NCBI GenBank assembly: GCA_964639885.1
Contig: CAZXEH010000001.1
Location: 151,205-215,204 of the forward strand
From: an uncultured Caldisericales bacterium
GTDB taxonomy: Bacteria > Caldisericota > Caldisericia > JAAYUI01
DNA length: 64,000 nucleotides
Direction of reading: 5' to 3'
Every line of letters starts with the position of its first letter. Position 1 is the first letter of the stretch. A program made the position numbers and the translations under genes. Below the pieces are notes generated by a model that did no database searches, was not told where the DNA came from, and saw nothing but the letters and a program-made list of their open reading frames with translations. Shown here piece after piece: positions 4,517-56,107 of the stretch.

Positions 4517-4536
4517 TCGCTTAATCTTTTCATAAA

Positions 4537-5477: not shown

Positions 5478-5480
5478 GCC

Positions 5481-6332: not shown

Positions 6333-6341
6333 CAGGCAGGC

Positions 6342-7079: not shown

Positions 7080-7080
7080 A

Positions 7081-13701: not shown

Positions 13702-13737
13702 CCATTGTATAATCGTACAAAAGGAGATCGCATAACG

Positions 13738-26984: not shown

Positions 26985-26992
26985 GTTCCCTC

Positions 26993-39053: not shown

Positions 39054-42000
39054 AGAGCCACCTCCTCCAACACGGCATCAACCATGTTGACAAGCTGTTT
39101 TGTTGTGAATCCGTACTGTTCCATGGCACCGGATGGACAAGCACCGGCACAGGCACCGCAACCCTTGCAGAGAGCCTCGTCAACCTTGACTCTTCCGCGT
39201 TCGGTTTCCTTGTCGATGATTTCGAGCGAGAGCGCCTGGTATGGGCACATCGGGATGCAAATTCTGCAACCGTCGCAGACATCTGGATTGACCGTTGCGA
39301 TTGCCGCTTCAGCCATGAGGGTGTCCTTGCTGATGATTGTGAGGGCTCTTGCCGATGCAGCCGATGCCTGGGCGATTGTCTCGTCGAGCATCCTCGGGTG
39401 GTATGCCATGCCTGCAAGGAAGATGCCTTCTGTTGCAAAGTCGACCGGTCTGAGTTTGACGTGCGCTTCAAGGAAGAAGCCTTCGTCGTTGGTCGGAACC
39501 TTGAGGAATGTTGACAGAATCTTGTTGTCCGGGTTGGCTTCAACGCCTGCCGAAAGAACAACCATGTCTGCCGGAATCTCAAGCCAGCCATGAAGAACCG
39601 GGTCATGGGTTCTGACTACCAGCTTGCCGTCTTTTTCGATGACTTCCGGCTGGTTCTCGGGATCCCATCTTGAGAAGATGACGCCTTTTTCACGAGCCTT
39701 GTTGTAATAGTGTTCCCTGAAGCCGTAGGTTCTGACGTCTCTGTAAAGGACAAACACTTCAGCCTTCGGGAAGTCTTCCTTGAGAAGGTTTGCGTTTGCC
39801 ATTGCCGTTGAGCAGCAAATCCTTGAACAGTAGGGGTGTTCGTCGTTTCTTGAACCAACGCACTGGATCATTACCACAGTCTTGATGTCTTTTGGAAGTT
39901 CTTTTTTGATGAGCTTTTCCTCAAGCTCGATCTGGGTGATGACCTTTGGATTCTTGCCGTAGAGATATTCTTTTGGCTTGTGCTGGTTGGCGCCGGTTGC
40001 AACGATGATTGAGCCGACCGAGAGTTCCTTTTTCTCGTTGGTTTTTGTGTTCTTGATGACCGGCACAAAGTTTCCAACCGAACCTGAAAGGTCTGAAAGG
40101 ACGGTGTTCTTGAGAACGGTGATGTTTTTGTTTCTCTCAACCTCGAAAATCAAGCTCTTGAGGTATGCCTGCATGTCGCCAACTTCGTTTGTGTAGTAGG
40201 AGTGGTTGAGGTTTCCACCGAGTTTTTCATCTCTCTCGATGACTGTGACCGGGAAGCCGTTCTTTGCGATGTCGAGTGCGGCATTGAGTCCGGCAGCTCC
40301 GCCACCGATGACAAGCGCAGACTGGGTAACCGGAAGCGATGCCCTCTTGAGCGGTTGGAGCATTCTGGTCTTTGCGATTGCAACCCTGACAAGGTCTTTT
40401 GCTTTCTGTGTGGCTTCAGCCGGGGACTGCTGGTGAATCCATGAGCAGTGTTCGCGGATGTTTGCCATTTCGACAAGGTACGGGTTGAGGCCGGTTTCTC
40501 TCAGGGTTTCCTGGAAGAGCGGCTCGTGCGTCCTTGGGGTGCAGGAGGCAATGACCACGCGGTTGAGGTTGTTTTCCTTGATCATCTTGGAGATGAGGCT
40601 CTGTGTGTCCTGTGAGCAGGTGTAGAGGTTGTGCTCTGCGATGATGACGTTCGGAAGTGTTCTTGCATAGTTCATTACGTCGACAACGTCGACCGTGTTT
40701 GCAATGTTGATGCCGCAGTGGCAGACAAAGACGCCAATCCTCGGCTCTTCACCGGCAACGTCTTTTTCTGGCGGATATTCCTTTGCCACAAGGGCTGTCC
40801 TTCTGCCTTCCGCACAGTCGGCGCCGGCTTTTGCTGCTGCACCGATTGCCTGGGCGACTGTTTCAGGAATGTCCTTCGGGCCTTCAAACACGCCGGCAAC
40901 GTAGATTCCCTGACGGCTTGTCTGGAGCGGGTTGGTGTAGTCGGTCTTTGCAAAACCGTCTTCAGTGAGGTCGAGTCCGAGATCGTCGGCAAGTTTTTTC
41001 ACCGATTCGGAAATCTGGAGTCCGACGCTCAGGATGACGAGGTCAAACATCTCGGTCTTTTCAGAGCCGTCTTCGTCCTCGTACCTGATGATGACATTGT
41101 GGCTGTTCGGGTCTTCCATGACTTCTGCGATGCGGTTTCTGATGTAGCGGATTCCCCACTCGCCTTTTGCCCTGTTGTAGTACTGTTCAAAGCCCTTGCC
41201 AACCGCCCTCATGTCCATGATGAAGATGGTTGATTCAATGTCTGGAACGTGTTCCCTGGTCATGATGGCTTCTTTGGTCGCGTACATGCAGCATACGCCT
41301 GAGCAGTAGGGTTTGTTGATCTTTGGATCCCTTGAGCCAACGCACTGAATCCAGGCAATCTTCTTTGGCACCTTGCCATCTGACGGCCTGAGCACGTGTC
41401 CCTGATATGGGCCTGAGGCGTTGAGGATTCTCTCGTACTGGATCGAGCTCAATACATTGGGGAATCTGCCGTAGCCGTATTCCTGCTTGAGTGTCGGGTC
41501 GAATTCCTCGAATCCCGGGCAAAGAATGACCGAGCCGATGTCCAGAGTTTTCTCGGTTTCGGCGTCGTCATACTTTACCGCCTTGGCGAGGCAGACGTTT
41601 TCGCACATCTGGCATCCGATGCAGGCTTCGCGGTCGATTGTGGCAACCAGCGGAATGGCCTGTGGGAATTCGATGTAGATCGCTTTCCTGTTGACAAGCG
41701 ATTCGTTGAATGCGGATTCTCTTTCGATCGGGCAGTAGACCATACAGGTTCCACAGCCGGTGCAAAGCGATCTGTCAACAAATCTTGGGTGCACCTTGAC
41801 TGTTGCCTTGAAATCACCTGGTCTGCCGGTGATCTTTGAGACCTCGGCGTTCGGGATGATGTCGATGTTCTGGTTTCTGCCGCAAGCAACGAGCTTGGGT
41901 GACAGGATGCACATGGAGCAGTCGTTGGTTGGGAATGTCTTGTCGAGCTGCGCCATTACACCGCCGATTGCGGGAGATTTTTCAACCATGTAAACATGGA

Positions 42001-42100
42001 AGCCGGCTTCCACCAGGTCGAGCGATGTCTGGATTCCTCCGATGCCACCGCCGACAACCAGGACTGAACCAGCGCCTTTTACGTTCTTTTTAGTGTCCAT
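39050..42100 (-). CDS. hdrA: Extended HdrA-like flavoprotein (1016 aa): tandem duplicated FAD/thioredoxin-reductase-like HdrA modules plus multiple 4Fe-4S ferredoxin domains
   Basis: Two dinucleotide-binding motifs (VLVVGGGIGG and LVIGGGAAGLNAALDIA). HdrA-type Cys clusters including a C-terminal 2x[4Fe-4S] CDGCRICIPMCP / CKGCGACAGACP. Confidence 0.85.
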   Translation of the reverse strand: MDTKKNVKGAGSVLVVGGGIGGIQTSLDLVEAGFHVYMVEKSPAIGGVMAQLDKTFPTNDCSMCILSPKLVACGRNQNIDIIPNAEVSKITGRPGDFKATVKVHPRFVDRSLCTGCGTCMVYCPIERESAFNESLVNRKAIYIEFPQAIPLVATIDREACIGCQMCENVCLAKAVKYDDAETEKTLDIGSVILCPGFEEFDPTLKQEYGYGRFPNVLSSIQYERILNASGPYQGHVLRPSDGKVPKKIAWIQCVGSRDPKINKPYCSGVCCMYATKEAIMTREHVPDIESTIFIMDMRAVGKGFEQYYNRAKGEWGIRYIRNRIAEVMEDPNSHNVIIRYEDEDGSEKTEMFDLVILSVGLQISESVKKLADDLGLDLTEDGFAKTDYTNPLQTSRQGIYVAGVFEGPKDIPETVAQAIGAAAKAGADCAEGRRTALVAKEYPPEKDVAGEEPRIGVFVCHCGINIANTVDVVDVMNYARTLPNVIIAEHNLYTCSQDTQSLISKMIKENNLNRVVIASCTPRTHEPLFQETLRETGLNPYLVEMANIREHCSWIHQQSPAEATQKAKDLVRVAIAKTRMLQPLKRASLPVTQSALVIGGGAAGLNAALDIAKNGFPVTVIERDEKLGGNLNHSYYTNEVGDMQAYLKSLIFEVERNKNITVLKNTVLSDLSGSVGNFVPVIKNTKTNEKKELSVGSIIVATGANQHKPKEYLYGKNPKVITQIELEEKLIKKELPKDIKTVVMIQCVGSRNDEHPYCSRICCSTAMANANLLKEDFPKAEVFVLYRDVRTYGFREHYYNKAREKGVIFSRWDPENQPEVIEKDGKLVVRTHDPVLHGWLEIPADMVVLSAGVEANPDNKILSTFLKVPTNDEGFFLEAHVKLRPVDFATEGIFLAGMAYHPRMLDETIAQASAASARALTIISKDTLMAEAAIATVNPDVCDGCRICIPMCPYQALSLEIIDKETERGRVKVDEALCKGCGACAGACPSGAMEQYGFTTKQLVNMVDAVLEEVAL

Positions 42101-42116
42101 CTAGTCCCAGCTCCTT

Positions 42117-42893
42117 TCAGGCCTGAATGTACTGGAAGTATCTGCCGGACATGCCAGCCTCATGGACCATTCCCTTATGCTCGAGAAGCTGAACAAGACT
42201 GAACACCTTTGGTTCAGGCATGCCAGCCTGGGTAGCAATCTGCGGTATGGTCATCGGAACTTTTTCAATTGTTGAGAGGACGTGGTAGAGGTTGTATTTG
42301 TCCTCGATTGAATTGAGGATCATCTCATCAAACTGCTCTGCTGAAATGGTCTCGTTGTAAGTGTTGCCAGAGATCGTGAGCTTTGGTTCCTTGCCGACCA
42401 ACCAGCCGATTTCGGGATCGTTGGTGACTTTTCTGGCACAGCAGATGCGGTGTCTTGTCTCTTCAGGGGTGAGGGCTTCAGACGCTGCGGTTCCCAATGG
42501 ACCCAGTGAGAAGACCTTGTTCCTGAACTTGTCCAACGGATCGGCGATCAGCTGGAGGAAGCCGAGAGAGAGTTCAACCCTGCCTGGATCAAAACCTGCA
42601 AAACTGAGGAGGTTCTGGGCAAAGTGAACGCGTCTCTGGGCGATGAGGTTGCCTGTCCTGTAGTTGCACTCAAGCGGAGAGCATCCGGCTACGAAAACGC
42701 CGTCGGCTCCCATCTCAAGGGCTTCAAGGATGTTGTCGGCAAGGATTCTGCCTGAGCAGATGACCCTGACGATCTTGGAGATTCCCTTGTAGGGTGTTCT
42801 GACCGGGCCCACGAGGTCGCCTGAGGCCGAGGAGCACCAGTTGCAGACAAACGCCACTACTTTTGGTACATATCTTTTTTTAGTATCTGCCAT
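42117..42893 (-). CDS. MvhD/FlxD-like domain fused to a C-terminal winged-helix-like domain
   Basis: N-terminus VVAFVCNWCSSASGD...CSGRI...GADGVFVAGCSPLECNY (MvhD fold). The C-terminal ~100 aa carries the HTH-like LYHVLSTIEKVPMTIPQIATQAGMPEPKVFSLVQLLEHKGMV. Confidence 0.65.
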   Translation of the reverse strand: MADTKKRYVPKVVAFVCNWCSSASGDLVGPVRTPYKGISKIVRVICSGRILADNILEALEMGADGVFVAGCSPLECNYRTGNLIAQRRVHFAQNLLSFAGFDPGRVELSLGFLQLIADPLDKFRNKVFSLGPLGTAASEALTPEETRHRICCARKVTNDPEIGWLVGKEPKLTISGNTYNETISAEQFDEMILNSIEDKYNLYHVLSTIEKVPMTIPQIATQAGMPEPKVFSLVQLLEHKGMVHEAGMSGRYFQYIQA

Positions 42894-42902
42894 CTGTCCT
42901 CC

Positions 42903-43562
42903 TTAAAAGCTCTCAATGACTTCCCTGACGTGGTCGGTCAGCTTGTCGGTGGTGTGGAAGTTCATGAAGATCGCACCATACGGGCAGGAGGTTGCACAAA
43001 GTGAGCATCCCCTGCACAGATCACGGTTTGTTCTCGACTTGAGACCGCGTTCTGTCTGAACCATTGTGATGGCCGTAAATGGGCAGACTTCGACACAGAG
43101 GCCACAACCAACGCAAAGGTTGTCGTCTCTCATCTCGACTTCTTCGAAAATGAGGGCGTCCTTCGGGCAGGCATCAACACAAGCCGGTACATCGAGGTCA
43201 AGGCAGCGGTCGCACTTGAGAACGTGTGTGTAGTCTTCGTTTGGAAGGACTCCGCCGTACGGGCAGTTCATTACACACATCCAGCAGGCGATGCACTTGT
43301 CGTAGTCAATGTTGACCATGCCGGTTTCAGTGTCATAGTGCATTGCTCCTGTCATGCAGGCGGTGACGCACGGGGCATCATCGCAGTGACGGCAGCGGAG
43401 CGGATATGGCCTCGTTCCGGCAAGTTCGACGTGAACCCTCTGTTTTGTGAGTTCCTTCTCTATGCCGTCACCGTTGGTGTCGGCCGAGTGCTTCTTGAGG
43501 CATGCCCTTTCGCAGAGCCTGCATCCAACGCACTTTTCAAAATCCACTAGGATAGTTTTCAT
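42903..43562 (-). CDS. Polyferredoxin (multiple 4Fe-4S dicluster domains), FlxB/C- or MvhB-like
   Basis: At least four CxxCxxCxxxCP-type motifs (CVGCRLCERAC, CIACWMCVMNCP, CVGCGLCVEVCP, CRGCSLCATSCP). Confidence 0.8.
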   Translation of the reverse strand: MKTILVDFEKCVGCRLCERACLKKHSADTNGDGIEKELTKQRVHVELAGTRPYPLRCRHCDDAPCVTACMTGAMHYDTETGMVNIDYDKCIACWMCVMNCPYGGVLPNEDYTHVLKCDRCLDLDVPACVDACPKDALIFEEVEMRDDNLCVGCGLCVEVCPFTAITMVQTERGLKSRTNRDLCRGCSLCATSCPYGAIFMNFHTTDKLTDHVREVIESF

Positions 43563-43575
43563 TTCTCCAAGCCTC

Positions 43576-44811
43576 CTAGAAGATCAGAAGTGCGAGTTTG
43601 TCTTCAAGCACTTCTTCCTTGTGTCCTTTTATTGTGATCTGCTTTTTGACCAAACCGTTGATGGTTCCGATTGTGGCGATCTTTCCAACGAAGAGGGCGC
43701 CGGCAATCCTGTCATTCTGGATGACAACCTTGCGGTAAAGACCATCCTTGATGTTCTGTGAAATCATTACTTCGTGGGTTCCGCCTGTTGGTCTCACATC
43801 TCCGATGCTGATGCAGGAGAGGCCGTAGAACTGGAACGAGTTCATCCAGAACCAACCGCGGTATTCTTTTGGAATGCCGACCATGTTGAGTCCGGCAACC
43901 TGTCCCTGTTCGGAAGCCCTTGGCCAGACCAGGTTTGTTGTCGATCTACCAAACGATTCCTCGTAGGTCTCGGTGCAGTCGCCTGCTGCCCAGACATTTG
44001 GAATGTTTGTTCTCATGTGCTTGTCAACGACAATGCCTGATCCGCACTTGATTTCTGTGCCTCTAACGTATTTGAGGTCTGGGGCTACGCCTTTTGCCAG
44101 AACGACGATGTCTGTTTCGTGTTCGTCGCCTGATTCGAGAACCACGCCTTCAACCTTGCCGTTGCCGGTGATTGCGGTAACAGAAGTGTTTAGGATGATC
44201 CTGATTCCCTTGCGGTCGAGTCTCCTCTTGACGATTGATGCTGCTGTTTCGTCAAGGAGCTGGCTCATTATCTGTCCTGATGCGATTACACATGTTACAT
44301 CGACGCCAGCATCAACGAGACCCTGACAGGCCTTGAGACCGACTAGTCCGCCACCGACCACGACAGCCCTTTTGACCTGACCTTTTTTGATCATTTCCAT
44401 GATCTCAAGTGTCGGCCCAAGGTGTGTGAAGGTGAAGACGCCAGGAAGGTTTGCGCCTGGTGTGTCTGGGATTTGTGTCTTTCCGCCTGTTGCGATGAGG
44501 AGCTTCTCATAAGCGATTTCAGTTCCGTCGTTTAGGGCGAGTTTATTTTCAATCGGCATGTACTTGATGACAGGCTGACCGAGCATGAGCTTTATGTTTC
44601 TCTTGTCGTACCAGTCTTTTTCGTGGTAGTACATCTTGTCCTGAGTGGTCTCTCCGCCGATGAGATAGGAGATAAGCGGTCTGGAGTAGCTGAGATAAGG
44701 CTCTTCGGAGATGATCAGGATTTGGTTTTCCTTGTCGTGGAGGCGGATGGTGTCGGCGGCCCTGAGTCCGGCGATTCCATTACCTACGATGACATATTTG
44801 TATTTTTCCAT
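43576..44811 (-). CDS. FAD-dependent pyridine nucleotide-disulfide oxidoreductase family protein (NAD(P)H-binding flavoprotein; probable NAD(P)H input module)
   Basis: FAD motif YVIVGNGIAGLRAA. NAD motif AVVVGGGLVGLKACQGL. C-terminal WAAGDC. Confidence 0.8.
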   Translation of the reverse strand: MEKYKYVIVGNGIAGLRAADTIRLHDKENQILIISEEPYLSYSRPLISYLIGGETTQDKMYYHEKDWYDKRNIKLMLGQPVIKYMPIENKLALNDGTEIAYEKLLIATGGKTQIPDTPGANLPGVFTFTHLGPTLEIMEMIKKGQVKRAVVVGGGLVGLKACQGLVDAGVDVTCVIASGQIMSQLLDETAASIVKRRLDRKGIRIILNTSVTAITGNGKVEGVVLESGDEHETDIVVLAKGVAPDLKYVRGTEIKCGSGIVVDKHMRTNIPNVWAAGDCTETYEESFGRSTTNLVWPRASEQGQVAGLNMVGIPKEYRGWFWMNSFQFYGLSCISIGDVRPTGGTHEVMISQNIKDGLYRKVVIQNDRIAGALFVGKIATIGTINGLVKKQITIKGHKEEVLEDKLALLIF

Positions 44812-44819
44812 CGCCCCTC

Positions 44820-45728
44820 CTACTGTGCCGCGGCTGCCGGAGCCGGAGCGAACTTTTCAAGCAATGATTTCGGCTTGATCTTGTGCTGTGAGAAGCCGAG
44901 ATCGGCATCGGGAATGCCAAGTGCGAGTCCAAGAATCTGCGGGAGGAAGAGAACCGGAATGTCAATTGCTTTTCCGGTGTCACGCTCGAGCTTTTTCTGG
45001 TGGGCTTCGTACTGGATGTTGCAGAACGGGCAGTGGAGAACGAGTCCGTCAACGTCGCCTGCATACTGTTTGATTCTGTCGAGTTTGCCGGCTGCGATTG
45101 AAACGGCCGTGTTTTCCTTGATGCCAAGGATACCGCCGCCGCAGCACTCGTTCGGGTTGGCGATTGTCTTGACGGTTGCGCCTGTTGCCTTGATGAGTTC
45201 ATTGAGAGTGGCAGGAGCTTCCGGATTGTCAAACTTGCCAAACACTTCTGACGGCTTGAGATAGTGGCAGCCGGAGTGGGTGACGAAGGTTGCGCCCTTG
45301 AGCGGTTTTACAACCTTTTTCTTGATGCCTGCCGGGCCAATTTTTTCAGCCAGGAGCTTTGTGAAATGGATGACTTTTGCTTCGCCCTTGTAGCCTTTTT
45401 TACCAATCTTGGCAAGTTCGGCGTTGATTTTTTCACGTTCGGCCTTGTCGTGTCTGAGGTGTTCAGAAACTTCCGAGAGGGTTGAGTTGCAGGCGGAGCA
45501 GAGAGTGACTATGTCGAGACCCATCTCTTCAGCCTGTGCCAGCGCTCCGGCGGACATGACCATTGAGGCGTGCCTGTTGACGTTGACCATTGGCATTCCG
45601 CAGCATGAGGCGCCTGGCATGTCGACAAGTTCTATTCCGAGCTTCTCAGCGACTTTCCTTGCAGAAAGCTCATAGTGGAGAGCGCGTGCTGGTATGGTGC
45701 AACCTAGAAAGAGAGCGTACTTCATCAC
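44820..45728 (-). CDS. hdrB: Heterodisulfide reductase subunit B (two CCG domains)
   Basis: Cys-rich CCG motifs (ASCCGMP...TLCSACN and ECCGGGILG...LHCPFCN). Confidence 0.88.
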   Translation of the reverse strand: MMKYALFLGCTIPARALHYELSARKVAEKLGIELVDMPGASCCGMPMVNVNRHASMVMSAGALAQAEEMGLDIVTLCSACNSTLSEVSEHLRHDKAEREKINAELAKIGKKGYKGEAKVIHFTKLLAEKIGPAGIKKKVVKPLKGATFVTHSGCHYLKPSEVFGKFDNPEAPATLNELIKATGATVKTIANPNECCGGGILGIKENTAVSIAAGKLDRIKQYAGDVDGLVLHCPFCNIQYEAHQKKLERDTGKAIDIPVLFLPQILGLALGIPDADLGFSQHKIKPKSLLEKFAPAPAAAAQ

Positions 45729-46237
45729 TTGGCCTCCTTCTTAAGATCGTTTGATACAAGAACCGCCTCGATGAATTCCTTCTTGTTTTCGAGGGCTGGA
45801 AGTCCCATTTTTGCTCTCTTTTTGTTGTCGAAATCGGAGACCTCGTACATCCTGCCAAAGTTTGCCAGCACGTCTATCTGTGGAGTGTATGAAGGATGCA
45901 TGTGACCCTCGCGTGTTGCCAGATTTTTGAGCGCAAACATAAGGTCTGTAATCCCGACATCCTGTGGACAGCGTTCCTGGCAGGTGTAGCAATAGGTACA
46001 CAACCAGATGGGTTCATTGCCCAGCACTTCGTCTCTCATGCCCAAAAGCACCATTCTGATGATTTTTCTTGGATTGTAACTCTCATCGGTTGCTCTTACC
46101 GGACAGGAGGCTGTGCAGGTACCGCACTGGAAACAGCTTTTGATGCGTTCACCACCGGCAAGGCCAGCAACCTCGTACTTGAAGTTGGGGTTCAGGCTTT
46201 TTACCGGGATGGTGGCGGCGTCTTTCTGCTCACTCAC
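45725..46237 (-). CDS. hdrC: Heterodisulfide reductase subunit C (2x[4Fe-4S])
   Basis: CFQCGTCTASCP and CTYCYTCQERCP motifs. Overlaps the hdrB start. Confidence 0.88.
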   Translation of the reverse strand: MSEQKDAATIPVKSLNPNFKYEVAGLAGGERIKSCFQCGTCTASCPVRATDESYNPRKIIRMVLLGMRDEVLGNEPIWLCTYCYTCQERCPQDVGITDLMFALKNLATREGHMHPSYTPQIDVLANFGRMYEVSDFDNKKRAKMGLPALENKKEFIEAVLVSNDLKKEAK

Positions 46238-46898: not shown

Positions 46899-48134
46899 AT
46901 GAAAAAGTTCGTATCGATGGCAATTGTCGCGTTGTTGGTGGTTCTGGCAGATTGCCAGTCGATGGAAACAAAGGTATTTGTTGAGAAATTTTCATTAAAC
47001 TCTCAGCAATCCGATGGTTTTTCATTTACAAAACCTCAGATGTCAGCATACGATGGGTATTTTGTTGTGCATTCGCTTGGCAAGACAAAACCTCATGAAT
47101 CATCTTTCAAATGTCTTGATCTCAACAAAGGTGTTTTCACGTGGTTCCTCAATGTTGGTGTCGATGTGGTGCCAAATGAAGATTTTGATATAGGTTTCAA
47201 GGCTTTTAATGACAGACTTTACGTAAATCAGGGAGATACCTTTTGCAGGTTTGATCTCAAAACGGGCGGCCCCGTTTGGCAAACGAAAGAGAAAATAGAT
47301 TATGTGTTAAAGGCTGAACAGGACAAGATATTTTGCTTATCGCCCAAGATGACGGACAACGGGTTGGAATATCGAAAACTGCTGTGCTTCTGCTCAAATA
47401 AGGGAGAAATGTTGTGGTCTTCAAAAATACCCCAAGATTCCAATGATGTTAGAGTTGGTGAATCCGAGGTGGTGTATTTTACAAAAACACAAAAGCCGAT
47501 ATCCGTTCACGTTTTGTCAAAAGAAACAGGATCGCAGCTACAGAAGCTTCTTTCCATCACAAAAGTGATCCATAACCTCGATAACCCATCCAATTTTGGT
47601 TACATACGGGGCAATCAGATTCTAATGCATACGTCAAACAGTGAGGAAGTGTTACTGAATTTGGATAATATGCCTGTGTTGGATAAAGTAGAGTTTATTA
47701 TTGAAAACAACAGACTTTACATCGGGTCAACTGAAAAAAAACAATTTGACTGTTACACCACTGATGGCAAAAAAGTATGGTCAAGAGACCTAGGGGTAAT
47801 GGATATGATCGCCAGGACTAAATGTTTGGATTGTTTCATAACCTCGAGCTCAAAAAATGAATATCAAGTCGAGGGCATCGATCCGGTTACTGGCAAAAAG
47901 ATATGGAATGACAAGATATCTCTGGATAACCGCCCTTCAGTGGTTACGTCTGGTGATTATGCAATTTATCAAGCAGACTATTACAAAGTGTTGATTCGTC
48001 AGATTGAAACAGGCGAAGTTGTCCAAAGCCTCAAATTTTCTGAAAGAGTTAACAGTGTGTGGGGTATCCCTGGGTTTGGTATAATGGTTGCATGTGCTGA
48101 CAGCAAACTTCATTTCTTGGTAAAAACCGAATAA
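46899..48134 (+). CDS. Lipoprotein with PQQ-like beta-propeller repeats
   Basis: Signal and lipobox-like VLADC. Recurring G-x-x-W/VW repeat units (GGPVWQ, GEMLWSS, GKKVWSRDLG, GKKIWNDKI). Confidence 0.5.
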   Translation: MKKFVSMAIVALLVVLADCQSMETKVFVEKFSLNSQQSDGFSFTKPQMSAYDGYFVVHSLGKTKPHESSFKCLDLNKGVFTWFLNVGVDVVPNEDFDIGFKAFNDRLYVNQGDTFCRFDLKTGGPVWQTKEKIDYVLKAEQDKIFCLSPKMTDNGLEYRKLLCFCSNKGEMLWSSKIPQDSNDVRVGESEVVYFTKTQKPISVHVLSKETGSQLQKLLSITKVIHNLDNPSNFGYIRGNQILMHTSNSEEVLLNLDNMPVLDKVEFIIENNRLYIGSTEKKQFDCYTTDGKKVWSRDLGVMDMIARTKCLDCFITSSSKNEYQVEGIDPVTGKKIWNDKISLDNRPSVVTSGDYAIYQADYYKVLIRQIETGEVVQSLKFSERVNSVWGIPGFGIMVACADSKLHFLVKTE

Positions 48135-48140: not shown

Positions 48141-49565
48141 TTAAGAAGTTTGCAAACACTCCCTGACAAAATCTGCAATTGTGCCATCTCTTTGAGCCTG
48201 TTCGAGTTTGATTGCAAGCCACCTGCCAAGGGTCAGTCTTCGTCCTAAAACCCACTTGACGGCTGACTCTTTTGAGTCACAAGGGTCTTCTTCAAGAATT
48301 CGGCGTGCCCAGGTTACCGGTGAAGTAGGACGAATCGGTGACATGGTTTTGGAGAGAAAGAACCAGGCCCATTCATAAGCTTCAGGACAATCCCCCCAGC
48401 CATTTTTGGCCAGCAGTTCACTGACTGACCCAATTTGTGAAAGCACCTGCTCGATTTCCTCAAGCCGGCTTTCAAGTATCTTAAGATGTTGGGTCCATTC
48501 ACTGTCGAGTTTTCCAAGCATCTCGGCCTTCTTGAGATTCTTAAGATGCCTGCCCCACGACCGCCTTTTCTCCTCCAAATCCTGAGCGTAAGAGAGTTTT
48601 GCAAGGTCTTTCAGCTTGTCGAGGTCGAAGGTCAGCTTGTCAAAGGTGTACCCTGGTTCAATATCTTCAGGTTGTTTAACCCATGAAGTTCTGCATTTTT
48701 CAAGTATAGATTCAAGCGACGGCTCGTGATCTGGAAGAGCGTCAACAAGCCAGATGAATTCGTTGAAAGGAATAAACCTGTCGTGAATGATTTCGTCTGG
48801 AAGCATGTTTCTCTCGGTCGTCAGGATGGCCCTTTCATAACCATCCTCACCGATTGAAAAACCATTGGTAAATTTTTCTGAAACAGGGATTGATGTACAA
48901 AGGATGTGCTTCCCGCCGACGCCAAGTGAGAAAAGTATCGCTGTTGAGAGCAAATGTGCTCCCAAAGTCAGGTCTGTGGCAAACTTCCTTGTTTCACAGA
49001 AGGCATTGATTGTTGCTCCGAGAATCAGGGTTGTCCACTCCAAAATGAGCTGATGTGGAGTTTTTGACGATCCCAGCGCTTCGTCCAGTTTTTGGTAAAG
49101 GTTAAACCTTATCGCGTCGAACGTTAAGGGGTCAATTTTCTTTTTGATGCCAAAGAAGCTCTCCATCTCCATGTTGCAGGCATTTTGCTTGCCTGAGTCG
49201 GCTGGGTTTGAAGTGTCGCACCTGTCGTAGGTCTGGAGCAGTTTTTTAATCGGGTGGTCTTCCAAACCTTCACAGCCATCAGGTCCGAGACATCTTTGGC
49301 AACCGTGATGAGAGCATGCAAGTCTGGCAATTGTGACTTCAGGATGTTCTGGCCATGGATCGTTTAGAAAATACCAGAGTTTCTTGGGAATCTTTTCCTT
49401 GTCCTGCCACAAAATTTGCCCGTGAAAATCGGTGAAGGTTGTTTGCGGCTCCTTGGATTTGATGAATTCAAACGAGAGCTTGCCAATGTCGTGGATGAGT
49501 CCTGAAATGAAGGCCAGCTGGGCAGTTGTCAGAACGCCTGACCGCATTTTCTTGCTTTGCGGCAT
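48141..49565 (-). CDS. HD-domain (metal-dependent phosphohydrolase/nuclease superfamily) protein with a Cys/His-rich insert and a long helical C-terminal domain
   Basis: LIHDIGKLSF (H...HD motif) and a downstream ACSHHGCQRC...DHP. It starts just after the CPBP stop. The ORF track extends to 49643. Candidate ATGs are at 49565 and 49547. Confidence 0.55.
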   Translation of the reverse strand: MPQSKKMRSGVLTTAQLAFISGLIHDIGKLSFEFIKSKEPQTTFTDFHGQILWQDKEKIPKKLWYFLNDPWPEHPEVTIARLACSHHGCQRCLGPDGCEGLEDHPIKKLLQTYDRCDTSNPADSGKQNACNMEMESFFGIKKKIDPLTFDAIRFNLYQKLDEALGSSKTPHQLILEWTTLILGATINAFCETRKFATDLTLGAHLLSTAILFSLGVGGKHILCTSIPVSEKFTNGFSIGEDGYERAILTTERNMLPDEIIHDRFIPFNEFIWLVDALPDHEPSLESILEKCRTSWVKQPEDIEPGYTFDKLTFDLDKLKDLAKLSYAQDLEEKRRSWGRHLKNLKKAEMLGKLDSEWTQHLKILESRLEEIEQVLSQIGSVSELLAKNGWGDCPEAYEWAWFFLSKTMSPIRPTSPVTWARRILEEDPCDSKESAVKWVLGRRLTLGRWLAIKLEQAQRDGTIADFVRECLQTS

Positions 49566-50512
49566 CTTATAAACAGCAGGATTGCCATGACGATGACAAA
49601 CAGAACCGTTGCAACCATGTAATCCCAGCCACTCGAATCCCACCAGGTTTTGCCGTTCTCAATCAAGACTTTGGGGATAAGGAATTTTTGCGTGATGAAG
49701 AAATTCCATGAGGCGTGGAGAAGTGTTGATGCCAGGATTGACCGGCTGAGTTTGTAAAACATTCCCACACCAAGACCGAAAAGCATTGTAAAGAGCAGGT
49801 ACATTCCAATATAACCGAGCGGGTCGGAGCCACGGTATGTGAACAGGTAAATAACGTGGTAGAGGGCGAAAAGAACCGACTGGATGAGCAGGGCGAAGAT
49901 GAAGCCTGTCGACTGCTCAAGCTTTGTCTGGATGTACCCTCTGAAAAATATTTCCTCTGCGAAGTTTCCGAACAGGTACATCAGGAGGAAGTAGAGTGAT
50001 TCAACGTTTGCCTTCGGCAGTTCAAAGAAGATGCTGGTTGATTTGAGCCCCAGAATCATTGGCGAGATGATGTGCACAAGAGCGAAGCCTGCCCAGATGA
50101 CGGCAAAACCACCGATGAACCAGAGCAACTGTATCAAAATATTGTTGAATTTGAGGCCGAAATAGGTTGGGGATGAACGGTCGATTAGCAGGATGGCCGA
50201 GATTGAAAGTGCTATCATTCCGGCCTTTTCTGCCAGAACAAATTCCTGCCAGAAGCCCAGTATTCGCACGATCATGACGCAAACAAACAAGACCAGCACA
50301 AGCAACAGGTCTTTTTTGAACTGGCCGTTGTGGAATGGAACAGGTGTGACTTTTCTGCTTGAAAGCCAGGCAAAAAGACTAGAGAAGATTGTGATTGCGA
50401 TTATGAAGGCGACATTGATCCAGTCGACCCTTGAAAAAGTCAGTACCAGAGCGCAAACAGAGACAACGAGGAAAATAAGGAGAGTGGCTTGAAGTCGTCT
50501 GTCCCGAAACAT
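49529..50512 (-). CDS. CPBP family intramembrane metalloprotease (CAAX protease / Abi domain)
   Basis: Motif 1 EEIFFRGYIQ. Motif 2 FALYHVIY. C-terminal HASWN. Multi-TM. Confidence 0.8.
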   Translation of the reverse strand: MFRDRRLQATLLIFLVVSVCALVLTFSRVDWINVAFIIAITIFSSLFAWLSSRKVTPVPFHNGQFKKDLLLVLVLFVCVMIVRILGFWQEFVLAEKAGMIALSISAILLIDRSSPTYFGLKFNNILIQLLWFIGGFAVIWAGFALVHIISPMILGLKSTSIFFELPKANVESLYFLLMYLFGNFAEEIFFRGYIQTKLEQSTGFIFALLIQSVLFALYHVIYLFTYRGSDPLGYIGMYLLFTMLFGLGVGMFYKLSRSILASTLLHASWNFFITQKFLIPKVLIENGKTWWDSSGWDYMVATVLFVIVMAILLFIRCRKARKCGQAF

Positions 50513-51654
50513 CAGCGTTTTCTCCTGGTTGAACTTGTATTCTTTAGTGGGCGCTCAGGTTGTTTCTGGGTTTGGACTGGTTCCTGGGGGAGAACTTTTG
50601 CATTGGCGATAAGCATTCTGTTGTGGGCGTAAAGGAATCCGGCTGTAACAAGCAAAAGCATGCAAGCCAGGACGATCCACCAGTTGCGTTCCTGGACAGC
50701 TCTCCGATCGGTCAGAACATCAACCTTGTCCAGCATTATCTTGGATTTGACATCATCGCCAAGGGCGATGAAAAGTCTTGCATTTTCAATATCTTTTTCG
50801 GCATCAAGCCTGATTTTGTAGTCTGTTGAATTCCTGAAATAGAACTTGCCAGCCCAGATTCGTTCGTATCTGGCCTCGGTATCTCTGAGGATGTCGGCGA
50901 GTTTGGTGTTTGGGAGCGAGAGTTTTGCAGATCTGACAAAAGTTGCAAGATCAACTCCGGTTGACCGGACAGACGACCTGAAGCCTTCGTTAAGCACTTT
51001 GGCCATAAACTGTCTGAGATTGTCCATGTTCTCGTTTTCCATCTGGGCAAGCTTGGCTACCGAGAGCATCTGGATAGCTGGCGACAAGGGGTTGTCGCTT
51101 CTGTTCTCAAGAGGGTTTTCGTAGAGGAATTCGTTCGGATAGATGTATCTGTAAAGGCCGGCAAATTTTGGGATGTTGGCTTTGAAGTATTTCAGATTCA
51201 GGAATGTTGAAATGATGTCTGCTGACTCCATGTCTGTGTTTGGGAAGTTGAGATAAATCAATTGAGTAAAAATCGTGTTGAATTTTCCAAGGTTTGAATA
51301 GTCATCCGGCGTTTGGATAAGGTAGATCGAGTTGCCCCTGACACCTGACCTGTACATGTTGTAGCCGGGGATGTCAGTGCCGGAGAGGACAACATTTATA
51401 CTTGGAGGAATCTTGTTTTTACCCAGGTAATTTTCGTAGAAGACAATTTGTGAGATGAGTTCGTTGAGGAGAATGTTTTTTTGAAGGTCGCGGGATTGAG
51501 CTTCGAAAAGGCCGTCAGGAATGTTGAGGCTTTCAGTGTAGCCTGCTTCTGCCGTTTTGAGAAACGGTGTGGCCAGGATGACGATGGTGAGAAGGAGGGC
51601 GAGGAGTTTCCTCACCAACCCTCCCCGACAAGCTGTACAATTCTGATGATCCAT
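50512..51654 (-). CDS. Exported protein with a signal peptide and a C-terminal TM helix plus a basic tail
   Basis: LLALLLTIVILATPFLKTAEA signal. C-terminal WWIVLACMLLLVTAGFLYA followed by a hydrophilic tail ending RRKR. Confidence 0.45.
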   Translation of the reverse strand: MDHQNCTACRGGLVRKLLALLLTIVILATPFLKTAEAGYTESLNIPDGLFEAQSRDLQKNILLNELISQIVFYENYLGKNKIPPSINVVLSGTDIPGYNMYRSGVRGNSIYLIQTPDDYSNLGKFNTIFTQLIYLNFPNTDMESADIISTFLNLKYFKANIPKFAGLYRYIYPNEFLYENPLENRSDNPLSPAIQMLSVAKLAQMENENMDNLRQFMAKVLNEGFRSSVRSTGVDLATFVRSAKLSLPNTKLADILRDTEARYERIWAGKFYFRNSTDYKIRLDAEKDIENARLFIALGDDVKSKIMLDKVDVLTDRRAVQERNWWIVLACMLLLVTAGFLYAHNRMLIANAKVLPQEPVQTQKQPERPLKNTSSTRRKR

Positions 51655-52721
51655 TCTGTGGTTTTTTCGAGGTCGACCACAAGAATCTTTTCTTCGAGTG
51701 TGTGAGGATTTTCCATGCCGCAGCTGACAACGCAGGTGTCGAGACCTTTTGCATTGAAAACGTTAGCAACAGAGCCTCCGCCTGAGGTTTCAAGCCTTGG
51801 TGAAATCGAGACATCCTGGGCTGATTTTGTCAGCAGTTTGAGAAGCGGGTGCTCGTTTGTGAAGTTGTAGCCTTTGAAGACGCGCTCTTTTTCGATGGTA
51901 AACTTCGCGCCTGTTTTTGAACAGGCTTTTTCGATCTCTGCAATCATCGAGGAGGTCAAGGCGTTGAGTTTTTCTTCGGATATCGACCTTGCTTCAAAAT
52001 TGAAGAAGCATTCGGCTGCGACAATGTTTGTTGCCTTGCCACCAGTTATGGTTCCGATGTTTGATGTGGTGTCGGAATCGATCCTGCCAAGCTTCATGTT
52101 GGCAATGGCAATTGATGCCGTCTGTATGGCCGAGATTCCCTTCTCGGGGAAAATGCCTGCATGAGCCGGTTTGCCTTCGATTGTGACCTTGCAGATGTCC
52201 TGGTACGGGGCAGCCGTGATGATCCTTCCGGGTGCGCCGTCGACATCGAGGATGATGGCTTTTTTGCTTTGATATTTTGAAAGGTCGATCTGGAAAGCGC
52301 CCCTGAGACCGATTTCCTCACAGATGTCAAGTGCAAGCTCAATAGTTGGGTGTGGCTTGTCCTGATAGAAATGGAGCATCTCCAGAATGGCTGCGAGGCC
52401 TGCCTTGTCATCTGCGCCAAGGATTGTGGTTCCATCTGAAGTGATAAGGCCATCTTTGACCTGGGGTTTGATTCCCACGCCTGGAACGACTGTGTCCTGG
52501 TGCGATGAAAAGCAAATAGCTCCCGGAAGTGTTCCCGGGAGCCTTGCAACGATGTTTCCTGTGTCTGAGCCAACCTTGTTGCCGGCATCGTCTACCTCGA
52601 CTTCAAGCCCTAGTGTTTTGAGCTTTGGAACGAGGTATTCAGTTACCGGCTTCTCGTGCTGTGATTCGGAAGGAATCCTGACCAGCTCGAGGAAAGTGTC
52701 AAGCAGTCTCTGTTTATTCAT
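51612..52721 (-). CDS. M20-family metallopeptidase (peptidase T / tripeptidase-like)
   Basis: HQDTV and GADDKAG metal-binding motifs. EIGLRGA. Confidence 0.65.
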   Translation of the reverse strand: MNKQRLLDTFLELVRIPSESQHEKPVTEYLVPKLKTLGLEVEVDDAGNKVGSDTGNIVARLPGTLPGAICFSSHQDTVVPGVGIKPQVKDGLITSDGTTILGADDKAGLAAILEMLHFYQDKPHPTIELALDICEEIGLRGAFQIDLSKYQSKKAIILDVDGAPGRIITAAPYQDICKVTIEGKPAHAGIFPEKGISAIQTASIAIANMKLGRIDSDTTSNIGTITGGKATNIVAAECFFNFEARSISEEKLNALTSSMIAEIEKACSKTGAKFTIEKERVFKGYNFTNEHPLLKLLTKSAQDVSISPRLETSGGGSVANVFNAKGLDTCVVSCGMENPHTLEEKILVVDLEKTTEWIIRIVQLVGEGW

Positions 52722-53253
52722 TAAAGCTTGTGCCTGCGTCGAGGGCTTTGCAGTTTACTTCGAAGTACTTTGCCTTTGCCTCGCCGAGTTTGTGCTTGAT
52801 GGCTGCCTTTGCGGATTCTGGCTTGACGGCGTTCGAATTCTTGATGAAAACGCCAAGCATGACTATGTTTGCAGCTCTTGACATTCCGACTTTCTCTGCG
52901 ATCTCGTTTGCCGGGACGTAGTGGACGGTGATGTCTGTCCTGTTAGATTTTGTATTGATCAGCGATGCGTTTACATAAAGGTGTCCGCCTGGAGCAACCT
53001 TCGGCTCAAAGCTTGTGAATGACGGAGCGTTCATAACCACAACGTTTTTTGGGTTTGGAACGACCGGTGAGGCGATTTCTTCATCTGAGGCGATGACTGT
53101 GCAGTTTGCTGTTCCACCCCTCATAGCCGGGCCATAGGATGGGAGATATACTGCATTTCTGCCTTCAAGAACGGCTGAGTCGGCAAAGAGCATTCCGAGC
53201 ATCATGACGCCCTGACCACCAAAACCAGCGACAAGCAAATCGTGTTGTGCCAT
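52714..53253 (-). CDS. korC: 2-oxoacid:ferredoxin oxidoreductase, gamma subunit
   Basis: Typical gamma N-terminus LLVAGFGGQGVMMLGMLFA. Confidence 0.8.
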   Translation of the reverse strand: MAQHDLLVAGFGGQGVMMLGMLFADSAVLEGRNAVYLPSYGPAMRGGTANCTVIASDEEIASPVVPNPKNVVVMNAPSFTSFEPKVAPGGHLYVNASLINTKSNRTDITVHYVPANEIAEKVGMSRAANIVMLGVFIKNSNAVKPESAKAAIKHKLGEAKAKYFEVNCKALDAGTSFNE

Positions 53254-53999
53254 CAGAGTCCCTCCGCAACCTTGAATTCACCGAGTGGATAATACTTCAT
53301 TGTCTCTTCCTTGACCCTCTTGAGCGCATCCACCGGAGTGTAGCCCCAGTTCGTCGGGCAGGTGGAGAGGATTTCGACCACTGAGTAGCCAAGTCCCTTG
53401 AGCTGTGCGTTGAAGGCTTTCTTGATGGCTGCCTTGGTCTTGTTGATGCCTGGCACTGAGACAACTTCGGTTCTTGCGATGTATGCTGGACCATTGAGCT
53501 GGGCGAGCATTTCCGAGACCCTGAGGGGGAAACCGTTCCATTCGGCTTTTCTGCCGTACGGCGAGGTTTCTGTCTTCCAACCCATAAGGGTTGTTGGAGC
53601 CATCTGGCCTCCGGTCATGCCATAGATGCCATTGTTGACGAAGATTGTTGTGATGTTCTCGCCTCTGCCTGCCGCATGAACCATTTCTGCAGCGCCAATT
53701 GAGGCGTAGTCGCCGTCGCCCTGGTAGGTGAGGACGAACTTGTCTGGAAGGGCTCTCTTCACACCTGTTGCAACAGCCGGTGCCCTGCCGTGTGGCGATG
53801 AAATCGTGTCAAATTCCCAGTAGTTGACTGAAAGCGTTGAGCAGCCAACTGGAATGACGATGATCGATTTCTGCTGGAGATCCATTTCCTCAATCACTTC
53901 AGCCACAAGTCTGTGGATGACGCCGTGGGTGCAACCCGGGCAGTAGGAAACTGGATTCTTGGTCAGTGGAAGCGGGTGGTGAGTCAGTTGTTCCATCAC
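53253..53999 (-). CDS. korB: 2-oxoacid:ferredoxin oxidoreductase, beta (TPP-binding) subunit
   Basis: CPGCTHG N-terminus and GDGDYASIGAAE TPP motif. Confidence 0.85.
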   Translation of the reverse strand: MMEQLTHHPLPLTKNPVSYCPGCTHGVIHRLVAEVIEEMDLQQKSIIVIPVGCSTLSVNYWEFDTISSPHGRAPAVATGVKRALPDKFVLTYQGDGDYASIGAAEMVHAAGRGENITTIFVNNGIYGMTGGQMAPTTLMGWKTETSPYGRKAEWNGFPLRVSEMLAQLNGPAYIARTEVVSVPGINKTKAAIKKAFNAQLKGLGYSVVEILSTCPTNWGYTPVDALKRVKEETMKYYPLGEFKVAEGL

Positions 54000-55069
54000 T
54001 TTGCCTCCTTAAGGATTTTCTTGAATTCTTCTGCAATTTCACCTGGTGATGGCACCATTCCGCCCTGTCTTCCGTAGAAGTGGATCGGCTTTTTGAACTG
54101 TGTGGCGAGTTTGACATCTTCGATCATCTGACCAAAGCTGAGCTCGACGTCCATGAAGAACTTTGTCGATGGCTTTCCGGCCAGATCGAGAAGCTGCTGG
54201 TTCGGGAACGGGTACAGGGAGATCGGTCTGAAGAGGCCGACTTTGATTCCTTCGCCCCTGAGCTGCTTTATGACTGTCTTGATGATTCTTGCGACTGTTC
54301 CGTATGCAACGAAGATGTACTCGGCGTCGTCTGTGTTGACGGCTTCGAACCTGACTTCGTCACGCTCGATGACCGGATACTTTGACCACAGTGCCCTGTT
54401 CATCTTCTCAAGACCTTCCGGAAGGAGGTCGAACGAGTTGACGACGTTCTTGCCGCGTTTTCCCTGCATTCCGTCAGTTGCCCAGCTCTTGTGCGGGAGC
54501 GAAGCAGGATCCTTCATTTCAGGGAATTCGATGGCTTCCATCATCTGGCCAAGGAGACCGTCTGAGAGCATCATGACTGGATTTCTGTACTTGTCGGCCA
54601 GATCGAACGCCAGTGGCATGAGGTTGACGCTTTCCTGGATGGTTGACGGTGCAAGGACGATGAGGTGATAGTCACCGTGTCCGCCGCCTTTTACAGCCTG
54701 GAAGTAGTCGCACTGTGCCGGAGCGATGTCGCCAAGTCCAGGGCCACCGCGAACGACGTTGACCACGACCACGGGGATTTCTGCGCCGGCGATGTAGGAA
54801 AGACCTTCCTGCATCAGCGAGATGCCTGGCGAGCTTGAGGTTGTGATTACCCTTTTTCCAGTTGCTGCGCAGCCGTAGAGCATGTTGATGGCTGCCACTT
54901 CGGACTCAGCCTGAAGGAAGACTCCGTTTACTTCCGGCATCCTTCTGCTCATGTACTGTGGTGATTCGTTCTGCGGTGTGATCGGATAGCCGAAAAAGTG
55001 TCTGCATCCAGCCCTGATTGCGGCTTCACCGATTGCCTCCGCGCCTTTCATTAAAATCTTTTCGCCCAT
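53996..55069 (-). CDS. korA: 2-oxoacid:ferredoxin oxidoreductase, alpha subunit
   Basis: POR/KOR alpha domain I/II sequence (MKGAEAIGEAAIRAGC...YPITP). GGAGG site. Confidence 0.85.
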   Translation of the reverse strand: MGEKILMKGAEAIGEAAIRAGCRHFFGYPITPQNESPQYMSRRMPEVNGVFLQAESEVAAINMLYGCAATGKRVITTSSSPGISLMQEGLSYIAGAEIPVVVVNVVRGGPGLGDIAPAQCDYFQAVKGGGHGDYHLIVLAPSTIQESVNLMPLAFDLADKYRNPVMMLSDGLLGQMMEAIEFPEMKDPASLPHKSWATDGMQGKRGKNVVNSFDLLPEGLEKMNRALWSKYPVIERDEVRFEAVNTDDAEYIFVAYGTVARIIKTVIKQLRGEGIKVGLFRPISLYPFPNQQLLDLAGKPSTKFFMDVELSFGQMIEDVKLATQFKKPIHFYGRQGGMVPSPGEIAEEFKKILKEAK

Positions 55070-55078: not shown

Positions 55079-56107
55079 CTACTTTCCTACGAATTGTAGA
55101 GTTAATGCATCGGCTGTATAAACGTGACCGGCAGCGTTCTGGTTGTCAAAGAGTGAGACGCCGAACATGTAATTGGCATCTTCCGCCTGGTCGTGTGAGA
55201 ACTGAACCTGGAGTGGGTTTGAGGTTCTGAGTGATCTCTTCATCTCAAGTGTCCATTCCTTTTTTTCTTCGTTGTATGTTGCCTTTGCTTCAACGGCGCC
55301 CTGACCGGCGAGCTTGATGTAGTACGGTGCCTTTGCATCCGGGCCAAGTGTTTTTGGATCGGCCGGTGCCGGTGTCATGAATTCCATTTCGCCGATTGTG
55401 TGATTGTCATAGAGGAGTCCCTGCTGAAGCACATAGAGGGGTGAACGTGTGTCTCTCTTGTTCTGGATGAGTGCGCCTGGCATGTAGTGGTAACCGGCTT
55501 TGACTTCCATTGTTGCTGTATCGAGTTTTGGGTTCGGGTAGCTAACGACGTAGTTGTTTGCAATTGCAAGCTGTGCTGATTCAGCGGCCATCCATGTCCA
55601 GGTGTCGAGTGCTTCGCCCGGCTTGTTTGTGTACATTGCCTTGCTGTCGTGGCAGATCACGGCACAACCCTGCTTGTCAAATTCTGCAATCTTGCCCGAA
55701 ACAAAGCCGATGGAGAACATGTCCTGCTTTGTAAGTGTGATTGCTGATCCCCATTTTTCGCCCTTCATTTCCCATGGTTTGCCTGACATATCCATTGACT
55801 CGTCGGCCCATGTGAACTGGAGGTAAACGTTTTCGGCATCGTAACAAGCCTTTGCCATTGCTGTGTTTGTTTCACCGACTTTGATCTCGACCGGTGCTGC
55901 GTTTGCCCATGCCTCTTCGGCTGGATCGATCGCACCGTCGATGAGCGGTGCAATTTCTGAGTATTCTGCTGAAAGAATGGTTGCTGTAGGAGCTTCGTAC
56001 ATGGAAGGGGTAACTGACTTTTCAACAACGGCAGAGCCGCCACCGCAGCCTGCAAGCACCAATAATGACATGACAACAGCGATGAAAACTGATTTCTTCA
56101 TTCCCAT
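55079..56107 (-). CDS. Lipoprotein of unknown function (possible EB_dh/DMSO-reductase heme-b-subunit-like fold; tentative)
   Basis: Lipobox LVLAGCGG. Soluble ~320-aa domain. The family assignment is weak. Confidence 0.4.
   Translation of the reverse strand: MGMKKSVFIAVVMSLLVLAGCGGGSAVVEKSVTPSMYEAPTATILSAEYSEIAPLIDGAIDPAEEAWANAAPVEIKVGETNTAMAKACYDAENVYLQFTWADESMDMSGKPWEMKGEKWGSAITLTKQDMFSIGFVSGKIAEFDKQGCAVICHDSKAMYTNKPGEALDTWTWMAAESAQLAIANNYVVSYPNPKLDTATMEVKAGYHYMPGALIQNKRDTRSPLYVLQQGLLYDNHTIGEMEFMTPAPADPKTLGPDAKAPYYIKLAGQGAVEAKATYNEEKKEWTLEMKRSLRTSNPLQVQFSHDQAEDANYMFGVSLFDNQNAAGHVYTADALTLQFVGK

Follow-up and report, generated by a model that had tools for sequence, protein, structure and literature searches.

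An orphan Cas10-like HD protein of the Csx11 branch, encoded apart from CRISPR genes in Caldisericota

A 64,000-nucleotide stretch of DNA from an uncultured Caldisericales bacterium (GenBank assembly GCA_964639885.1, contig CAZXEH010000001.1, positions 151,205 to 215,204), here called the window, was analysed. Coordinates refer to the window, counted from its first letter, unless another locus is named. Open reading frame (ORF) calling placed three co-directional ORFs on the minus strand within 48141-51654. They encode an exported, C-terminally anchored protein, an intramembrane protease of the CPBP family, and a protein with an HD-type metal site. By sequence and fold comparison, the HD protein belongs with Cas10 (Csx11 branch), as a stand-alone relative that has not been described before and that occurs across Caldisericota without CRISPR genes nearby.

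Genes at the 3' end of the kor-pepT operon

The three genes close an operon-like string on the minus strand which reads, 5' to 3', as an exported EB_dh-domain protein (55079-56107; PF09459, E 1.5e-17), korA (53996-55069), korB (53253-53999) and korC (52714-53253; all three by Pfam/NCBIfam), a pepT-like M20 peptidase (51612-52721; TIGR01883 of NCBIfam, E 1e-112), the anchored protein, the CPBP protease and the HD protein. The order from the EB_dh gene to pepT was matched in six related loci (L001, L002 and L006 to L009). Since the three terminal genes all have orthologues there, they are genuine rather than ORFs that arose by chance. Judged from the overlaps of their reading frames, translation of these last genes of the operon is coupled. 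The region is a syntenic metabolic operon rather than a defence island, and neither integrases nor other defence genes were found at this stable locus. Repeat scans of the 64-kb window revealed no CRISPR array and no CRISPR-like or tandem repeat, and a single tRNA (21281-21353) was the only Rfam element in it.

The HD gene (48141-49565) encodes 474 amino acids. Its longest ORF spans 48141-49643. The probable start is the ATG at 49565, with an alternative ATG at 49547, and in the alignment the orthologues start at a position equivalent to one or the other. Both codons lie inside the 3' end of the CPBP gene, giving overlaps of 37 and 19 nucleotides, respectively. The protein carries the motifs HD at residue 25, HGQ at 48, HHG at 86 and DRCD at 114, and the residues of a Cas10-type HD metal site are H25 D26, H48, H86 H87 and D114/D117. 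The adjacent helical domain carries an ETR-x4-D-x2-L-x2-H motif. Invariant in the family alignment were HD, DxHGQ, CxHHGCxRC...C, DxxDxSNPxxGKQ, ETR...D..L..H, SPxRPxSP and GR. Four cysteines around HHG (49272-49316), spaced as C84-x4-C89-x2-C92-x5-C98, were invariant in all 15 aligned members and form a putative Zn or Fe-S site, referred to as Cys4. The C-terminal domain (about residues 265-474; 48144-48773), delimited by the alignment and by the AlphaFold 2 (AF2) model, is helical in the AF2 secondary structure and contains the motifs HxxNL, W390, SPIRPxSP (409-416) and GR (447-448). The AF2 model of the whole protein was good, with a predicted local distance difference test score (pLDDT) of 84 and a predicted template modelling score (pTM) of 0.83.

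The anchored protein has its longest ORF at 50512-51654, with an ATG at 51654. The likely start is the GTG at 51615, which gives a protein of 367 amino acids (50512-51615). It was preferred because a Shine-Dalgarno sequence (GGGGAGGG) lies just upstream, because the codon overlaps the pepT stop as GTGA, and because a 367-amino-acid database protein (P0025) is 100% identical to the product from this start. Hydropathy analysis indicated a signal-like N-terminal segment (residues 4-22) and a single C-terminal transmembrane segment (residues 312-330), which enclose an ectodomain of about 290 amino acids; the tail beyond the transmembrane segment ends in RRKR. In the alignment of orthologues, WW312-313 is invariant and is followed by the transmembrane segment and a Lys/Arg-rich cytoplasmic tail, the length of which varies from about 10 to 170 amino acids. 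No Pfam, NCBIfam, PADLOC or PHROG family matched the protein. Only nine homologues were found, all from the window's clade, and the AF2 model was unreliable (pLDDT 51, pTM 0.28). It is an orphan confined to its lineage.

The CPBP gene (49529-50512, 327 amino acids) starts within the stop of the anchored-protein gene, the overlap reading TGATG, and is preceded by an AGGAGA Shine-Dalgarno sequence. The product matched PF02517 (Rce1-like) with E 2e-19 and 70.1 bits, above the cut-off of 22.4, and showed about seven hydrophobic segments in the hydropathy plot. The catalytic motifs were located as EEIFFR at 186, FALYH at 215 and HASWN at 266. EExxFR, FxLYH and HxxxN were intact in all seven CPBP orthologues compared, and the enzyme is predicted to be catalytically competent. 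It had five homologues, all in the window's clade, and no PADLOC match. Proteases of CTERM sorting systems (MrtS, Mrt_core, MrtP, MrtJ and MrtC) were among its best NCBIfam matches, all far below threshold (bits against cut-off: Mrt_core 28.8/100, MrtS 35/130, MrtP 25.6/250, MrtJ 23.7/75). The CPBP protein is an ordinary member of its family. Its own C-terminus (49529-49660) also reads as WW, a transmembrane segment and a basic tail (...GKTWWDSSGWDYMVATVLFVIVMAILLFIRCRKARKCGQAF), like the end of the anchored protein.

The first-pass annotation of this DNA, the descriptions of which held for the ORFs, the anchored protein, the CPBP motifs and the HD protein, had named the anchored protein as a candidate substrate of the protease. 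The pairing itself agrees with the data. Both genes were adjacent and overlapping in seven of the seven loci that have either of them, and the orthologues preserve the WW, the transmembrane segment and the basic tail. The CPBP protein shares its three catalytic motifs with the CTERM sorting proteases of the Mrt type (MrtX/MrtC/MrtP, MrtS and MrtJ) and with Rce1, and its neighbour ends in WW, a transmembrane segment and a basic tail, a layout typical of a protease encoded beside its dedicated substrate. It differs in falling below every Mrt cut-off, in the long and variable tail that follows the transmembrane segment of the neighbour, and in having just one candidate substrate, as no second protein with such a C-terminus was found in the window. 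By analogy, a dedicated substrate-protease pair is plausible, and it would be a minor addition to the candidate pairs of this kind.

Kinship of the HD protein with Csx11 and Cas10

Csx11 (TIGR02682) has been described as a Cas10 subfamily with an inactivated palm (PMC3150331). A word-indexed search returned 24 homologues of the HD protein, none of them with a Pfam domain. A profile of the family was then compared with 1.84 billion representatives and gave 294 matches, about 20 of which were full-length family members. Many of the others were about 1000 amino acids long and aligned to profile positions of about 4-220. Ten of the profile matches were scanned, seven of them of about 1000 amino acids, and all ten hit the Csx11 model, with E-values down to 9e-158. 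In hhalign, residues 5-226 of the HD family (48888-49553 in the window) were paired with residues 5-239 of Csx11 at a probability of 99.9% and E 3.3e-32, and the two alignments had invariant columns in common. With the long members of the family the probability was 100% (E 2.8e-44), and the alignment was confident to about Csx11 residue 320, thereby taking in the Csx11 hairpin GN.IY.D.NG..FL.P.

Single sequences gave weaker signals of the same kind. The Csx11 model was hit directly by six of the 15 family members (best E 7.8e-22, N-terminal part only), and cas3_HD (TIGR01596) was matched below threshold by 14 of the 15. The window protein itself gave no match to TIGR02682 at E<=0.1 (family cut-off 248.95 bits), a sub-threshold cas3_HD match (19.8 bits, cut-off 43.45), a weak match to Csm1 (TIGR02578) and a weak PADLOC match to Cas3 (4e-6). 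The generic HD model PF01966 did not match it at E<=0.1. Among the relatives, six of 15 matched PF01966 weakly (best E 0.0046), less well than Cas3_HD.

The AF2 model of the HD protein was compared with the PDB using Foldseek. The top 26 matches were all Cas10 proteins (Csm1/Cmr2), with a best E-value of 2.7e-4 and 250-408 aligned columns at low template modelling scores (about 0.3) and 10-13% identity. Neither the sequence nor the profile found anything significant among PDB sequences; the relation to Cas10 emerged only from Foldseek and profile searches. Against predicted viral structures, Foldseek returned nothing below E 0.8 and PHROGs gave no match for the HD protein; together with the PHROG result for the anchored protein, this gives no sign of a phage origin. 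The first-pass annotation had noticed a Cas3/Cas10-type signature in the HD motifs, and this lead proved correct: hhalign, profile searches and Foldseek on the predicted structure show the protein to be homologous to the N-terminal third of Csx11/Cas10.

Like Csx11, the HD protein has an N-terminal Cas10-type HD domain that begins with the HD dyad and a following helical domain with ETRR-x-ND-x-TL-x-DH; the long members of the family also have the first palm-like hairpin GN.IY.D.NG..FL.P. Csx11 is about 1000 amino acids long, whereas the window protein has 474. The treble-clef zinc finger of Csx11 (C433/C436/C448/C451) has no counterpart in it, and the second palm and the C-terminal domain are absent. 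Conversely, the Csx11 consensus is devoid of cysteines at the Cys4 position, which is specific to the HD family, and the helical C-terminus of the HD protein is its own, with no confident counterpart in Csx11. In a true Csx11 examined as a control (P0054), a RAMP gene directly follows; the HD gene, unlike Csx11 with its RAMP/cas neighbours, does not lie beside RAMP or cas genes or arrays.

Two further ideas on the C-terminal half were examined and dropped. Homology of this half to Csx11 is not claimed, as hhalign gave P=0.014 at a probability of 3%, and the pairing was inconsistent between runs (SPIRP with PSPxR in one, RRPxTLGR with PSPsR in another). No confident match of the C-terminal helical domain to anything was obtained with hhalign or Foldseek. 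A split Csx11 with its remainder encoded downstream was rejected: in the window the downstream gene is a convergent one for a PQQ-like beta-propeller, and in many other loci it encodes an exported protein that appears SLH-like by eye.

Type III CRISPR systems have Cas10 as their signature protein. Outside CRISPR, its only well-known derivative is, to our knowledge, mCpol/Panoptes; mCpol has preserved the polymerase/cyclase palm and uses oligonucleotides as signals. The HD protein keeps the opposite end of Cas10, namely the HD domain and the N-terminal domain, has no active-looking cyclase palm, and is encoded outside a defence operon. As described (PMC12657230), mCpol, a 'miniature Cas10', is likewise a small stand-alone Cas10-derived enzyme outside CRISPR-Cas. 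Cas10/Csm1 and Cmr2 of types III-A and III-B (PDB 4uw2, 6o7b, 6mur) were the sole significant structural matches of the HD protein. Their GGDD cyclase palm is absent from it, and the protein is therefore not expected to make cyclic oligoadenylate or SAM-AMP. The signature HDxGK ... HH ... D..D.S is also that of the Cas3'' HD nuclease (TIGR01596 / PF18019) and of Cas10d of type I-D; with respect to Cas3'', the HD protein falls below the curated cut-off and has no adjacent helicase or Cascade genes. No Pfam, NCBIfam or PADLOC model covers the stand-alone family, and no description of it was found in the searchable literature on Csx11, Cas10-like proteins and LipS1/LipS2.

Distribution and neighbourhoods of the HD gene

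A genome scan located the HD gene in 31 GTDB species genomes, nearly all of Caldisericota, and about 40 loci were collected in all. Caldisericota carriers include Caldisericales, a metagenome-assembled genome (MAG) of Caldisericum exile and Caldisericum sp. AR60 (L023). The few carriers outside this phylum belong to Vulcanimicrobiota, Coprothermobacterota and Ca. Psychracetigena/Lithacetigena. The window gene is 94% identical to that of an uncultured Caldisericales MAG (L006). ORFs were called in all loci and then clustered for the comparison of neighbourhoods.

The gene 5' of HD varies by clade. LipS2, often with LipS1 before it, precedes HD in 18 loci (17 plus L038), with an overlap of 23-35 nucleotides where gene calls exist (L003/L004, L005, L038). 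The two-component lipoyl synthase LipS1-LipS2 was identified by the models NF053743 (E 5e-101) and NF053742 (E 3e-81). In five loci HD is preceded by PepT-Nudix-XerD-DeoB. Two Vulcanimicrobiota loci, L011 (6416-9600) and L025, have an M48/HtpX-like membrane protease (HExxH) and a C-terminally anchored Gly-zipper protein of 124 amino acids in this place, and single loci have NUDIX/NrtR (L039) or DUF58-DUF4129 (L040). The anchored protein and CPBP precede HD in just seven related loci, i.e. the window and the six named above, and in L002 a phosphofructokinase (PFK) gene lies between CPBP and HD. LipS1 and LipS2 were absent within 8 kb in these seven loci. No cas Pfam family occurred among the HD neighbours in eight annotated loci (L001-L005, L038-L040). 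The occurrence of pepT 5' of HD in two clades, that of the window and that with Nudix-XerD-DeoB, suggests that pepT and HD have long been linked and that different genes were inserted between them. The HD gene is an older and more widespread element than the CPBP/anchored-protein pair.

Some details of the LipS-associated loci may be added. The order LipS1-LipS2-HD is found in most Caldisericota (L003, L005, L012-L017, L019-L021, L023, L024, L029, L030 and L038), at about 6000-8035 in each of these loci. L005 contains a local duplication at 1598-9770, in which an intact LipS1-LipS2 and a 108-amino-acid fragment of the HD gene are followed by an opposite-strand gene for a 1061-amino-acid surface protein, a second LipS2 that is split, and the complete HD gene. 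A Y1 transposase (PF01797, REP-associated type) was seen next to or between LipS genes in several Caldisericales genomes (L003 6120-6986; between LipS1 and LipS2 in L020 and L030).

The LipS2 linkage with its overlap could mean that the HD protein acts on small molecules, as a nucleotide phosphohydrolase of nucleotide or cofactor metabolism, and is not a nuclease. Removal of a nucleotide by-product or of a signalling nucleotide would explain the linkage to radical-SAM lipoyl synthase, NUDIX and phosphopentomutase genes: NUDIX occurs in three different contexts (L018/L022/L028, L036 and L039) and DeoB in the five loci mentioned. The weak PF01966 matches of some members and the position of the HD gene among housekeeping genes (RuvABC, UvrA, an AsnS-type tRNA synthetase) agree with such a role. 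The nearest relatives by sequence and fold, however, are the HD domains of Cas10/Csx11 and Cas3, which are nucleases, and the generic HD matches are the weaker ones. The contexts also come mostly from one phylum, where common descent rather than function may account for the linkage, and none of the loci of the window's clade has LipS within 8 kb. We regard a phosphohydrolase as unlikely.

The first-pass annotation had further suggested that the three genes form a processing, signalling or abortive-infection-like module. The neighbourhoods do not support this: CPBP and HD are paired in seven of about 40 loci, all of one clade, and even there PFK intervenes in L002. Elsewhere the HD gene follows the unrelated LipS2, DeoB, M48 protease or NUDIX genes, and about 30 loci have it without CPBP or the anchored protein. 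A joint action confined to the window's clade would link the envelope to the cytoplasm, for instance by proteolysis of the anchored protein that releases or activates the HD nuclease, in a sensing or abortive-infection-like manner. Such an action would fit the co-directional, overlapping arrangement of the genes, their conservation together in seven loci that span 42-94% HD identity, and an HD domain of the Cas10/Cas3 defence type. It would also fit their faster evolution compared with the flanking metabolic genes: identities within the clade are 73-93% for Kor and 55-87% for PepT, as against 42-65% for HD, 34-50% for CPBP and 24-46% for the anchored protein. The M48 protease, 124-amino-acid Gly-zipper protein and HD of the Vulcanimicrobiota loci offer a loose analogy. 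On the other side stand the negative PADLOC results for CPBP and the anchored protein, the negative phage-family results for HD and the anchored protein, and the setting in a stable metabolic operon free of integrases and other defence genes. The seven loci are, moreover, related, and their shared order may be plain inheritance. Joint action of the three proteins therefore appears improbable.

Cas10 proteins without an HD domain exist, and homology to the N-terminal third of Csx11, together with a C-terminal helical domain that could serve docking, might suggest that the HD protein acts in trans, as a component or accessory, in a type III CRISPR-Cas system whose genes lie elsewhere in the genome, for example as a split-off HD nuclease subunit for an HD-less Cas10. 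This is very improbable. The genes for partners of CRISPR effectors normally adjoin those of the effectors, whereas the 64-kb window contains neither cas genes nor an array, and none were found within 6-8 kb at the roughly 40 loci where Pfam or cluster data existed. The family-specific Cys4 and C-terminus also speak for a separate course of evolution.

Interpretation of the region and other features of the window

What the analysis shows, namely how the genes are arranged, what they are homologous to, where they occur and how their neighbourhoods change, is best accommodated if the region is a composite of two units that differ in age and close the kor-pepT operon. We consider it reasonably probable that an orphan Cas10-like HD enzyme (unit A) and a separate, clade-specific CPBP-substrate cassette (unit B) have come to lie side by side here, and the two would then be functionally independent of each other.

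Unit A consists of the cytoplasmic HD protein, a stand-alone relative of the large subunit Cas10 of type III systems. It retains the metal site of a Cas10-type HD domain together with the N-terminal domain next to it, and the longer relatives retain the first palm-like beta-hairpin as well. Either by loss or from the outset, it is without a zinc finger, a second (GGDD) palm and the Cas10 C-terminal domain; a putative metal site, Cys4, and a helical C-terminal domain of its own have been gained. The gene would be an old resident of Caldisericota and a few other phyla, its product working without CRISPR RNA (crRNA), Cas7/Cas5 and a CRISPR array, and it would simply be the last gene of whichever operon precedes it. 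With modest confidence, the protein is predicted to be a metal-dependent nuclease or phosphodiesterase acting through the conserved HD site. It would most likely cut single-stranded nucleic acid, like the HD domain of Cas10. Cys4 may be a metal centre with a structural or redox role, and regulation or partner binding may fall to the C-terminal domain.

Unit B would be a two-gene envelope cassette of the window's clade. The anchored protein would be exported and held by its C-terminal WW, transmembrane segment and basic tail, and the CPBP protease would cleave or mature it, by analogy with the CTERM/Mrt sorting systems.

Several points weigh against this two-unit reading. The nuclease assignment is drawn from the homology of the HD site. 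The translational overlap of HD and CPBP implies co-expression in the window's clade, which leaves room for a clade-specific link between them. The M48 protease and small anchored protein 5' of HD in two Vulcanimicrobiota loci could hint at a recurrent connection of proteases with HD. Identities of 24-65% for the three genes against 55-93% for kor and pepT would also fit a role related to conflict. Finally, the anchored protein has a long and variable tail in place of the short sorting signal of classical CTERM proteins.

On the origin of unit A we can be only tentative. The HD family may well consist of vertically inherited Cas10 half-proteins, composed of the HD domain and N-terminal palm-like domain, with Cys4 as a metal site and a C-terminal domain of a new kind, which have a cellular role outside CRISPR in Caldisericota and a few neighbouring phyla. 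Such proteins could have arisen in two ways. Either a type III large subunit was exapted to housekeeping nucleic-acid or nucleotide metabolism, or the family is a pre-CRISPR relic of the ancestor of the N-terminal module of Cas10.

The origin of Cas10 is an open question, and the family could show how this protein was assembled or dismantled. In keeping the end of Cas10 with the HD nuclease, it complements mCpol, which has only the palm. Throughout a phylum that branches deeply and has been little studied, the gene appears to be a stable part of the chromosome, and its product would offer a simple single-protein system for what the HD module of Cas10 does alone. An orthologue (L023 8001-9509) is present in a cultured host, Caldisericum sp. 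AR60, which makes the question testable. An orphan Cas10 half-protein would be of interest to specialists in CRISPR evolution even though the idea of a three-gene module fails.

The remaining observations concern the surroundings of the three genes. The EB_dh-domain gene, the family of which is named after ethylbenzene dehydrogenase, lies directly 5' of korA in seven of seven related loci and is an unexpected partner for a 2-oxoacid:ferredoxin oxidoreductase operon. A heterodisulfide-reductase/Flox-like cluster on the minus strand (39050-46237) encodes an HdrA-like protein of 1016 amino acids, FlpD/MvhD-like, CCG/HdrB-like and HdrC-like proteins, a 4Fe-4S protein and a pyridine-nucleotide oxidoreductase; it also adjoins the kor operon in L001, L002, L006 and L007. 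The exported PQQ-like beta-propeller protein convergent to the HD gene (46899-48134, plus strand) has an N-terminus that reads as a lipoprotein signal (...LADC), and three tandem paralogues of it were found in L001 (9392-13261) and L007. Very large ORFs of 1179, 1648 and 831 amino acids are located at 13705-17244 (plus strand) and 22038-29488 (minus strand).

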